The notes: generated by a model not told the origin, from the sequence alone. Shown: positions 29,054 to 32,000, counted from the first letter of the stretch. The stretch: 32,000 nucleotides of DNA from Candidatus Thorarchaeota archaeon (GCA_008080745.1 SHMX01000001.1:180001-212000), one strand, 5' to 3'. Program-made: numbers and translations.

Positions 29054-29887
29054 TTAATCTGATTTCAGTTCCTTTGCACGTATTATTTCAATCCCTAAAG
29101 ATTCAATCATTGGAATGATACGATCACGTTGGTCAGAAGTGGTACCTTTCCAGTCAAGTATTGCTTGATTTACAGATTCGTGGGTTCTATTAACCATCTG
29201 AGATACCAAATCTTGGTTGATTTCATCAAGTACGTATTTTGGAGCCATATGGCTTATGTGAATATTTTCTTCTAGGACAAGACGATTGAATTTCGAGGCA
29301 TAATGATTTCCCCCAAATGCAATAGATGCCCCTTTATTCATGGATACAGTGAGACAGTCGATAGCAGCAGCCGCTACTGCTTTAGCACCTTCAGGATGCT
29401 CCCAATATTCTTCATCAGAGCCAAGTTCAACAAATAACAGAGGTGTTTTCATACTGGTTGGACCATGATGAGTAACCTCAAGTGAAACATCAAATTCCGA
29501 AAGGTTACGATGATTTCGTTCTGAAAATAACCGTTTGTAAGCGGTTGAAACCAATGATGCTGTAGATATTGAGAGCTCGTAGGGCTGTCCACCGAATGAG
29601 TCATCGGAGAGATAATTGCCAGTGCTATGCACCAGTAGAGCTGGTTTTGCTGATTTTGACCTATGACGTGAGCAAAATATGAACACTTCTGCATCAAAAT
29701 GCTCATCCAAATGGTCACACCGAATCAAATCACGTTCACTAGTGATAAGAATGGAATCTGGTTCGTGTGTATAGATTTCATTCCCTTCAAAAATTTCGCC
29801 ATTTGAATGGAAACCATATTCATCGATTAGGACTTGCTTGATATTTTGACTAGCTGGATCTTTTACTGAGGTTACTATTACCCTCAA
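29054..29887 (-). CDS. dtdA: D-aminoacyl-tRNA deacylase (archaeal DTD2 type)
   Basis: DPASQNI, FCSRHRS, LLVHSTGN, EVTHHGPT, FVELGS, FGGNHY, HMAPKY, DWKG. Confidence 0.93.
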   Translation of the reverse strand: MRVIVTSVKDPASQNIKQVLIDEYGFHSNGEIFEGNEIYTHEPDSILITSERDLIRCDHLDEHFDAEVFIFCSRHRSKSAKPALLVHSTGNYLSDDSFGGQPYELSISTASLVSTAYKRLFSERNHRNLSEFDVSLEVTHHGPTSMKTPLLFVELGSDEEYWEHPEGAKAVAAAAIDCLTVSMNKGASIAFGGNHYASKFNRLVLEENIHISHMAPKYVLDEINQDLVSQMVNRTHESVNQAILDWKGTTSDQRDRIIPMIESLGIEIIRAKELKSD

Positions 29888-31134
29888 ACTGCCTCACCTG
29901 ATACAGGCTCGATACTACATTTCTGAAGAAGCGGTTCGAGGGTCTCACCATATTCAATTGAAACCTTAGCACTAAAGGATTTTAGAAGTTCTTTCTCAAT
30001 CCGAGATTTGTAATCTTTCATCTTTTCTAATTCACGTTCGATATCATCTTTCACGCGTAGCAAATCATTCTGATGATACTCTAGGTTCTTTCGAGCCTCC
30101 TCCACTTCAACCTTCAGTTTTGCATCTTTAGAGTAAACATCGGAGTCGGCAAATTCTTTTCGTTTGCGTTCTATTTCCTTTGCTTGTTCCTGAAGTTCAA
30201 AGAGTTCACCCTTCTTGATAGATTCAGCTTCTTCAATAGCACGCCTACCTAATCTGTCTTTCAGTGGAAATGCATCGGTCTCAACAGCTTGCTTCAATGC
30301 TTCAAGTCCTTCGATGAGACCTGGTTGTCCATCTGGCTCTTCTATTATTGCTTGGTAAGGATCTTCAAAATAGTCTAGTAATGCCTTTGATCCTGCTGGA
30401 CTAACTCTAACCCCGTGATCGTGCTGAAGGAACTTTTTAACTGGTTTCTTAAGGGTGTTTAATTTCATTCGTAATAAGGTAGCAATACGATCGGCTTCGT
30501 CATCAAGATTTAGCAGGTCTCCAACATTGGACTTTTCAACAAAATCACTGTATTTCTTTTTAGCAGCCATATACTCTCCACGAGCATGGTCAATCTTCAA
30601 ACGAACTTGTCTAATTTGCTCCTCGAATACGTCTCGACTGTATGTCATGTCGCGCAGAGTGTTAATCCTGGCATCTATTCGTTCCAAATCCTTAACCCAA
30701 CTGTATTCGTATAGAAGTTTGCCAAGTATTTTCATATCGCGTGATAGGTCTTTCATTAGATTGTCCAATACTTTAATGGTGCTCTTGTGTTTCTTATCCA
30801 TACGTTTAATCCATCGAGCACCTGCACCCCAAAGATCATTGATGAATTGTTGAATCTCCGCTTGCATATCCTCAGTACTTTCATAAGTAATATCTTGGTC
30901 AACCTCAAAACCATCCACTAACTCACGTAATTTCAGACCAAATCTAGTTGCAGTGCCTTCGCTATCCTCCTCGGTAGCCTCCTTCAGCAAATCTTTGGAT
31001 AATTCTTCAATATCTTTCAGAGTTCGACCTACAGATTTGTAGCTCTTTTCTGCATTTTTTCGAAAGTCCTTAGACTTTTTCTTTAACTGTTTCCTATACC
31101 ATTTAGACAAGGAGTCGATATCAAGTTGCGTCAT
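29884..31134 (-). CDS. Archaeal coiled-coil protein of unknown function
   Basis: Charged helical protein of about 416 aa; its stop overlaps the dtdA start (TTGA). ATG 31134 (MTQLD) preferred over 31209. Confidence 0.82.
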   Translation of the reverse strand: MTQLDIDSLSKWYRKQLKKKSKDFRKNAEKSYKSVGRTLKDIEELSKDLLKEATEEDSEGTATRFGLKLRELVDGFEVDQDITYESTEDMQAEIQQFINDLWGAGARWIKRMDKKHKSTIKVLDNLMKDLSRDMKILGKLLYEYSWVKDLERIDARINTLRDMTYSRDVFEEQIRQVRLKIDHARGEYMAAKKKYSDFVEKSNVGDLLNLDDEADRIATLLRMKLNTLKKPVKKFLQHDHGVRVSPAGSKALLDYFEDPYQAIIEEPDGQPGLIEGLEALKQAVETDAFPLKDRLGRRAIEEAESIKKGELFELQEQAKEIERKRKEFADSDVYSKDAKLKVEVEEARKNLEYHQNDLLRVKDDIERELEKMKDYKSRIEKELLKSFSAKVSIEYGETLEPLLQKCSIEPVSGEAV

Positions 31135-31276
31135 AAGAAATGAACACCCATCAAACGGAAATTCTTCAAGCACTTTATCAACTTTACGAAGCATGTAGAA
31201 TTGTTCCATTAGTCGATATCCGTAGTCTTATATCAATCACAGAGTACTCGTACACAACAAACAAACAGTGATTATC

Positions 31277-32000
31277 ATGTCTGAGCTCTTAGATACGGGA
31301 AACCAATATCCAAGGCTCGATATAGAATATGCTGTCGAATGTGCCTCATGAGGAAAAGGTCGCAAAGGCTTCTATTTCAAACGCCTAAGTCTGATAGACG
31401 AGTCCAATGAGAATTGTCTACTACTTAGAAATCCTGCGGACTACAAAGCAGGTTTCTGGGTATCATACATAATGAATGGTGAAATCCAAGTGTGTGGTTC
31501 AACTGATAGTGAAAGATTGAATCTCATCAGTCAAGAATATGATAAAGAACGGTATCACTTCACATTGGAGAATACCCCGCTGTTTAAGGAATCACCAGTT
31601 CTGAAATTTGACATTGATGTGTGGAGTTACAACGAACCCTTCATGCTTATTCGTCATGTTACACGAAATGTTGGCGAAGAACAAATAGAGGATTTGAAAA
31701 TCTACAACATCATGGACTTTGACATTGGAGGCCCCATAAGTTACAAAGATGATATGGGACTCTATAATACCGATACAGGGGTCATTATGGTATACGATCT
31801 AAGCTCACTTACCGTAGCAATGACTGGTATACCACAACCAAATGGTTGGGACTTGGACAAACCCACTAGTTTCAAACTAGAAGCAGACCGCGACCTTAGA
31901 GGAACCACAAAATTAGGACCACAAGATATTGCTACGGGATTGCAATGGGATCTCGGAAATCTTGATCCTTGCGACTCGAAAAAATTAGAAATTGTTCTTG
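31277..32000 (+). CDS. Candidate selenoprotein (CxxU) with a downstream beta-rich domain; runs off the window end
   Basis: ATG 31277: MSELLDTGNQYPRLDIEYAVECAS-[TGA 31349-31351]-GKGRKGFYFKRLSLIDESNENC..., then open to base 32000 with no further stop (...NVGEEQIEDLKIYNIMDFDIGG...GPQDIATGLQWDLGNLDPCDSKKLEIVL). Confidence 0.75.

Follow-up and report, generated by a model that had tools for sequence, protein, structure and literature searches.

A candidate selenoprotein family with a conserved in-frame UGA codon and a SECIS element at its stop codon in Thorarchaeota

Annotation of the locus

The analyzed window comprises 32,000 nucleotides (C1:180001-212000) of a metagenome-assembled Thorarchaeota genome of 3.16 Mb with a G + C content of 41%. 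Five short contigs of the assembly (C14, C15, C17, C18, and C19) have a G + C content of 62-65%, compared to 39-43% elsewhere, and are probably bin contamination.

At the 3′ end of the window, an open reading frame on the plus strand starts with ATG 31277 and comprises 266 codons if one internal stop codon is read through. Codons 1-241 of this CDS are located at 31277-32000 according to frame reading and ortholog alignment. From the genome sequence, the last coding nucleotide was extrapolated to position 32074 and the TGA stop codon to 32075-32077, so that the ORF ends 77 nt past the window. The sole internal stop is a TGA at codon 25 (31349-31351, plus strand), three codons after the TGT codon of Cys22 (31340-31342, plus strand). 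Read as selenocysteine (Sec, U), this TGA results in a C-x-x-U motif in the local context VEC-A-S-U-GKG. The next in-frame ATG is found at 31472 (codon 66), 41 codons past the TGA, and the standard ORF list contains just the 201-codon ORF that starts there.

A TATA-box-like promoter element (cttatatc) is located at 31227-31234 on the plus strand, 43-50 nt upstream of ATG 31277, and nearly all orthologous loci have a TTTATATC-like TATA motif at a comparable distance ahead of the start codon (about 40-52 nt). Furthermore, a GTGAT at 31268-31272 (plus strand), 4 nt before the ATG, may serve as a Shine-Dalgarno-like sequence; GTGAT or GTGGT (GTGRT) occurs at the same position in most orthologs. 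A preliminary description of this DNA had listed ATG 31277, the single TGA at codon 25 with a cysteine three codons before it, ATG 31472 and the TATA-like element upstream, all of which were found as claimed.

The stretch was also searched in public sequencing data. It is present in two DNA runs only, both from one marine-sediment study, with no RNA run listed as containing it, and the contigs of these two metagenome runs are identical to the assembly over the region, with a word depth of 48x and 126x. The two runs are the probable source of the assembly and are thus not counted as independent support.

The gene appears to be monocistronic, with a divergent neighbor on one side and a convergent neighbor on the other. 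The divergent gene (29884-31209, minus strand) encodes a coiled-coil-rich protein of 441 residues, lies 67 nt from the start of the candidate selenoprotein gene and was found in synteny at each of the 28 orthologous loci inspected. Together with the convergent genes for proteins of 132 and 164 residues, the neighborhood is syntenic in 25-28 genomes. None of the three neighboring proteins could be assigned to a Pfam family, and they provided neither an operon link nor a functional hint.

Conservation of the UGA codon among orthologs

In a six-frame search with the read-through protein, a match was found in 29 of 36 genomes of the same taxonomic family, and all 28 full-length matches align from residue 1 and contain exactly one TGA each, at codon 25. 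Within its taxonomic family, the gene is present in 72 of 85 genomes. A class-wide search of 87 genomes revealed 60 full-length orthologs, of which 59 carry one TGA and one (G075) carries none. The TGA-bearing orthologs span 15 genera of the class with 34-75% protein identity, and the orthologs align over residues 1-266. Chance does not explain why 59 of 60 full-length orthologs (27 of 27 in the codon alignment) have their one TGA at exactly codon 25.

The Cys22 codon is TGT or TGC in 26 of the 27 aligned orthologs. The exception is G005 (L049, G005:C21), which has ATA (Ile) at this position and no cysteine at all, with the Sec codon kept. Invariant residues were identified on either side of the TGA and ahead of Met66, and the surrounding conserved block reads P-R-L-D-x-x-Y-x-V-E-C-x-S-U-G-x-G-R-x-G-F-Y-x-K-R-L-S-L-I-D. 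Among 13 closely related ortholog pairs, pN/pS amounts to 0.20 for codons 1-24, 0.13 for codons 26-65, and 0.31 for codons 66-266. The regions dropped by standard annotation are therefore the most constrained ones, and both homology and purifying selection begin at Met 31277 and not at Met 31472.

The only Cys ortholog found is that of G075 (L075, G075:C61:11905-12702), in which codon 25 is TGT, giving C-S-S-C. Its 3′ region keeps the AUGA/GA core of the RNA element described below, with a diverged apical loop and no match to the covariance model R1; this divergence is consistent with a relaxed constraint following a change from Sec to Cys. The other Cys homologs are distant (19-25% identity). 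In full-length homologs from other Asgard ("Promethearchaeota") assemblies, cysteines are aligned to both Cys22 and Sec25 in the form of CxxCxxC or CxxC, with a Cys at the Sec position in P0052, P0077, P0135, P0056, and P0083. Four of these (P0052, P0077, P0135, and P0056) have CxxCxxC at the same hairpin and an extra Cys six residues before the conserved Asn131.

The genomic context of two Cys homologs was uninformative, one of them preceding a VWA-domain gene. P0153, a Cys homolog with CxxCxxC from a Promethearchaeota MAG (L076:6001-8213), is followed by a gene for a VWA-domain protein 20 nt downstream on the same strand, and a HypD gene is located divergently upstream. Another relative, L051 (G006:C8:20129-20515), has an internal deletion, and only residues 1-81 and 218-263 align. 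With the TGA kept and a weaker SECIS match of 32.7 bits, it is probably a decaying copy.

When 1.8 billion representative proteins were searched with a profile, close relatives were detected only as N-terminally truncated gene calls, which begin at profile positions 34-48 or later. The starts of the public gene calls are scattered from position 28 to 48, all of these annotations are truncated after the TGA, and all are named "hypothetical protein". One public fragment record (P0043) has a W at the TGA position, presumably as the result of a gene call under a TGA=Trp table.

Identification of the SECIS element

Among orthologs, nucleotide conservation extends into the sequence just 3′ of the CDS, which harbors a putative SECIS element at the gene's own stop codon. 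Beyond the window end, the element was extrapolated to 32054-32145 (C1:212054-212145; L001:2355-2446). Its core is a canonical K-turn by sequence, with the stop codon of the gene inside its AUGA: a C-stem of UGC (32070-32072) and GCA (32111-32113), an AAU bulge (32073-32075), G.A/A.G pairs of 32076-32077 with 32109-32110, and helix II of 32080-32085 with 32101-32106, closed by an apical loop (32086-32100). The terminal stop codon, which lies within the AUGA, is TGA in 27 of 28 orthologs.

RNAalifold predicted an 8-bp helix II with compensatory changes on both sides at all eight pairs. In a 21-sequence alignment, 92.9% of the cells are paired compared to 27-52% in slid controls, and 53 double changes were counted; the observed covariation score was reached by none of 500 shuffles. 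U-G-A on the 5′ side of the core does not vary and follows either A or G; equally fixed is A-G on the 3′ side, which in most orthologs comes after a G. The apical loop reads G-U-A-A-A-G-C, of which UAAAGC is invariant in the 21-sequence seed and two adenines are invariant across all 28 orthologs. The C-stem pair adjoining the bulge is C-G throughout; its neighbor in the stem occurs as CG, GC, AU, UA, and UG, i.e., in five standard types. In G005, the RNA element is intact although the coding frame runs into the SECIS and stops at a UAA in the apical loop. The stop codon is shifted and the element is nevertheless kept, and its conservation therefore acts at the RNA level.

Minimum-energy folds of most orthologs contain, in addition, an outer helix in which the last codons AAGAAGAU (K-K-M/I) pair with AUCUUCUU further downstream. 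In the genome studied here, the 5′ strand of this helix I covers the last CDS codons (32054-32069) and the 3′ strand about 32127-32145. Single-sequence folds place a GC-rich hairpin (GGGnAGCaCCC; hairpin III, about 32116-32125) between the K-turn and the outer helix. Cognate strands of helix I pair with -12.4 kcal/mol compared to -7.8 kcal/mol for non-cognate strands; since the sequences are related, these values are taken as no more than supportive. With outer helix and extra hairpin, the modeled element appears to form a three-way junction.

A covariance model (R1) was built from the core of the SECIS elements of this family and recovers the cognate element at the stop codon in the orthologs. 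When the genome was scanned with R1, only the gene's own SECIS was found, plus a weak hit (E 2.5) that is unlike a SECIS. An Rfam scan of L001:2300-2520 revealed no SECIS family (SECIS_1 or other) at E <= 10.

Sec machinery of the genome

The genes for SelB, SepSecS, tRNA-Sec, and PSTK are located within 4.3 kb (C5:24628-28925; L005, L006, and L015), with PSTK on the opposite strand. The tRNA-Sec was detected with 57 bits against a cut-off of 47 bits. The PSTK match of 145 bits is below the curated cut-off of 290, and the gene is located directly beside tRNA-Sec. The selD gene (C1:338860-339666, minus strand; L008) contains an in-frame TGA of its own at the position expected from G-U-x-C-K. 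By eye and in a single-sequence fold, its 3′ end consists of an AUGA as stop, an 8-bp helix, an AAA loop, UGAG, and a GC-rich hairpin. This layout is the same as in the 266-residue selenoprotein gene, and the apical loop differs. A crude SECIS pattern scan recovered the SelD element and was otherwise unspecific.

The matches to MvhD/FlpD and to the NiFe-hydrogenase large subunit in this genome contain no in-frame TGA, so no SECIS could be obtained from them for comparison. Among five genomes without the selenoprotein gene, SepSecS was found above the cut-off in two and not in the other three. The co-occurrence of gene and Sec machinery is therefore not strict.

A second UGA-containing ORF family

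In five relatives, R1 detected a second site with 40-48 bits, located 24-30 nt past the stop of a different small ORF. These sites are L098 (G007:C9:25082-25126, minus strand), L099 (G017:C52:53362-53406), L100 (G022:C111:19303-19347), L101 (G002:C3:33335-33379), and L092 (G027:C12:17533-17577). The ORFs encode 75-83 residues with an N-terminal membrane helix and end with a TAG stop codon. Four of the five share a conserved D-N-R-T-[TGA]-E-x-Y-E-Y-I-D, and the copy in G027 is divergent. By tblastn, no member was found in the genome of the window. Judged from sequence, this small membrane-helix ORF family is a candidate for a second, unrelated selenoprotein family. Thus, two unrelated families as well as SelD pair a conserved in-frame UGA with the same type of RNA element.

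Sequence features and structure prediction of the protein

Pfam and NCBIfam scans of the protein and 27 aligned orthologs returned nothing significant, and a profile search of PDB sequences had no result. No signal peptide or membrane segment is evident in the 266-residue sequence. Of the cysteines, only Cys22 is conserved, and in many orthologs it is the sole one.

The AlphaFold2 model based on the 27-ortholog alignment (mean pLDDT 88, pTM 0.88) consists of 18 beta strands and one C-terminal helix. The C-x-x-U motif is located in the loop of the first beta-hairpin, between strands 13-22 and 29-40, which is the least confident part of the model. With VIA-align, residues 1-266 could be superimposed on the N-domain of the GH15 glucodextranase 1ulv (19-262) with a Z-score of 23.6 and an rmsd of 2.3 Å over 226 residues. 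The score for the glucoamylase 1lf6 is 23.0, the N-domains of GH94, GH116, and GH65 enzymes reach 18-22, and galactose mutarotase-like proteins about 15; Foldseek agrees on a supersandwich. The predicted fold is that of a stand-alone all-beta supersandwich like the N-domain of GH15 glucoamylases. The sequence identity to such structural matches is 8-14%, and Pfam family PF09137 (Glucodextran_N) was not matched, the best E-value being 0.13 in one of 27 members. In contrast to the GH15, GH94, GH116, and GH65 enzymes, no (alpha/alpha)6 catalytic domain is attached to the 266 residues, and the Cys/Sec hairpin is specific to this family.

Two candidate assignments were rejected. A zinc ribbon or zinc knuckle with four Cys/His ligands in two knuckles does not agree with Cys22 as the only conserved Cys. 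A thioredoxin-fold CxxU/UxxC oxidoreductase does not agree with a model that is all-beta save the C-terminal helix, with the motif in a beta-hairpin loop, and no Pfam match was obtained. Cys22 being the only conserved cysteine, the protein is therefore taken as neither zinc ribbon nor thioredoxin fold. The preliminary description had suggested half a zinc ribbon or redox knuckle fused to a beta-sandwich-like domain. The beta-sandwich is borne out by the supersandwich model, whereas the fusion finds no support in this family, since the hairpin belongs to a single domain with one conserved Cys. However, the CxxCxxC at the hairpin of the distant homologs suggests that a knuckle-like metal site may be ancestral.

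Many larger proteins, some of them with transglutaminase domains, contain a region corresponding to residues 105-265 with the invariant D-x-D-x-G-G...S-Y-K-D-D block. Among the distant relatives of the C-terminal half, P0054 and P0062 are fused to transglutaminase domains, and in genus g6 and other relatives (e.g., G069:C6:5483-5881) proteins of about 1,460 residues contain a domain like residues 129-260 and no stops.

Proposed decoding of UGA25 and possible functions

On the sequence evidence, the TGA at codon 25 is very probably a genuine selenocysteine codon and the gene a genuine selenoprotein gene, as the preliminary description had proposed. The proposal is supported by the conserved TGA, the Cys homologs, the SECIS, and the Sec machinery. 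Where that description had asked for a TGA or Cys at this codon in orthologs, for a SECIS downstream of the true stop and for the Sec machinery in the genome, the TGA is kept in 59 of 60 orthologs with Cys in the remaining one and in distant homologs, a covarying SECIS is located at the true stop, and tRNA-Sec, SelB, PSTK, SepSecS, and a Sec-containing SelD are encoded. Translation would start at ATG 31277, and UGA25 would be decoded as selenocysteine by Sec machinery of the archaeal/eukaryotic type, directed by the SECIS about 725 nt downstream that overlaps the gene end. The terminal UGA inside the AUGA core would be read as stop; following Mariotti et al. (2016), we infer this from its position, which is too close to the SECIS for recoding. 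The product would be a cytoplasmic all-beta supersandwich of 266 residues with Cys22-x-x-Sec25 at the tip of the first beta-hairpin.

With regard to function, the leading guess, held with slightly less than even confidence, is that the Cys/Sec pair is a redox center on a sugar-binding-type scaffold and alternates between selenolate/thiol and selenenylsulfide. The C-x-x-U arrangement and the exchange of Sec and Cys favor such a redox-active pair. The supersandwich is a fold not known for redox selenoproteins, and G005, which lacks Cys22 and any other cysteine, argues against an obligatory intramolecular Cys-Sec couple.

The main alternative, which we regard as possible but rather doubtful, is that a metal or metal-cluster site is coordinated by Sec25 and Cys22 and goes back to the CxxCxxC...C of the distant Asgard homologs. 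It would account for the CxxCxxC at the same hairpin and the Cys ahead of Asn131 in P0052, P0077, P0135, and P0056, and for G005, where Sec is kept after the loss of Cys22 and can hence act without it. The acidic motif D-F-D-I-G-G-P-x-S-Y-K-D-D likewise points to a ligand- or metal-binding surface. However, the Sec family keeps only two of the four putative ligands, position 28 being Gly and position 125 aliphatic, and no metal-binding family was matched in Pfam or NCBIfam.

A read-through of UGA25 with another amino acid, by near-cognate insertion of Trp, Cys, or Arg or by a reassigned code, is very unlikely. The W in record P0043 would agree with it, but a gene call with TGA=Trp is the simplest cause. 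Termination at UGA in 27 of 28 orthologs shows that UGA is not reassigned genome-wide, and the sole sense codon among the orthologs at this position encodes Cys, as do the distant homologs, which is the classic Sec/Cys pattern. Moreover, the gene has a covarying SECIS and the genome a complete Sec machinery.

Still less credible is an ordinary stop at codon 25, with the gene starting downstream (at Met 31472 or elsewhere) and the first 24 codons forming a separate ORF or leader. This is what standard ORF finding and all public gene calls amount to, but invariant residues occur within codons 26-65, where pN/pS is lower than anywhere else in the gene, in G000 the next in-frame ATG is that of codon 66, and the public calls start at scattered positions. 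Codons 1-24 are constrained as well, G075 reads through with Cys, and the TATA box and Shine-Dalgarno-like motif precede ATG 31277. In the model, the first beta-hairpin would also span the TGA as part of the fold. A sequencing or assembly error or a pseudogene, for which nothing speaks beyond the presence of the stop codon, can practically be dismissed, as it is already refuted by the TGA in 59 genomes and by purifying selection throughout the gene, and the contigs of the two runs are identical at 48x and 126x.

Comparison with known selenoproteins and SECIS elements

The lokiSECIS has an AUGA...GA kink-turn core and a 9-bp upper helix (Mariotti et al., 2016; PMC4989117), and Thorarchaeia have type I eSECIS-like structures with the apical loop G[U/G]AAA in frhA (Huang et al., 2024; PMC11227280). 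The element described here has the AUGA...GA core, the short helix (8 bp), the adenines at the start of the loop and the position right 3′ of the CDS in common with both, and its apical G-U-A-A-A fits the frhA consensus. The helix of eukaryotic SECIS elements is longer. In Loki VhuU.1, the AUGA contains the stop codon as well, and a UGA so near to the SECIS was argued to be unrecodable (Mariotti et al., 2016; PMC4989117). By comparison, the stop-codon overlap is family-wide here (27 of 28 orthologs). Unlike lokiSECIS and eSECIS-like elements, the present one apparently has an added outer helix from the last codons (K-K-M/I) and a GC-rich hairpin, helix I being derived from single-sequence folds and energies only.

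Surveys of Asgard archaea list seven selenoprotein families, i.e., SelD, HdrA, FrhA/VhuU, FrhD/VhuD, Prx-like, AhpF-N-like, and DsbA-like (PMC11227280, PMC13188914). Huang et al. (2024; PMC11227280) used representatives of known families as queries against more than 400 Asgard genomes and obtained these seven; a review from 2026 repeats the list, and subsets of it were reported by Mariotti (2016), Sun (2021), and Valentin-Alvarado (2024). SelD is present in about 87% of the Sec-utilizing Asgard archaea according to published surveys. The 266-residue protein has the decoding system and the kind of 3′ SECIS in common with the seven families, and its C-x-x-U motif of redox type resembles that of the Prx-like and DsbA-like members. 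In contrast, it has no sequence relationship to any of them, and its predicted fold is an all-beta supersandwich and not thioredoxin-, ferredoxin-, or PurM-like. The suggestion of an unrecognized family in the preliminary description thus stands, as known Asgard selenoprotein families, Pfam, and NCBIfam gave no match. A literature search, which was not exhaustive, found no description of this family. One Cys ortholog and otherwise distant Cys homologs may explain why it was missed by Cys/Sec-pair and homology surveys. The decoding mechanism is of a known kind, to which the protein family, the context of its fold, and the SECIS embedded in the stop codon throughout the family add new members or variants.

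A further-reaching reading, offered only tentatively and less likely to hold than to fail, is that the protein is the founding member of a class of selenoproteins with a non-thioredoxin supersandwich fold of the carbohydrate-module type. In this class, Sec would have replaced one Cys of an ancestral CxxCxxC...C metal or redox hairpin to give a new kind of selenium active site, and the three-way-junction SECIS would use a helix formed by the last codons.

No known organisms are more closely related to eukaryotes than Asgard archaea, whose Sec system is regarded as a bridge from archaeal to eukaryotic selenoprotein synthesis. The seven known Asgard families were all found by homology, and the family described here has no known domain, is truncated in public annotation and occurs in most genomes of the class, which indicates that de novo searches for a conserved in-frame UGA combined with a SECIS still yield new families. 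As far as the literature found, Sec would be placed on a fold not previously linked to selenoproteins. Furthermore, the set of about 60 orthologous SECIS elements, each on its gene's own stop codon and together rich in covariation, bears on how a SECIS is recognized without SBP2 and on why a UGA within the SECIS escapes recoding. If the founding-class reading is true, then together with the second ORF family it would mean that homology-based surveys leave a substantial part of the Asgard selenoproteome uncounted.
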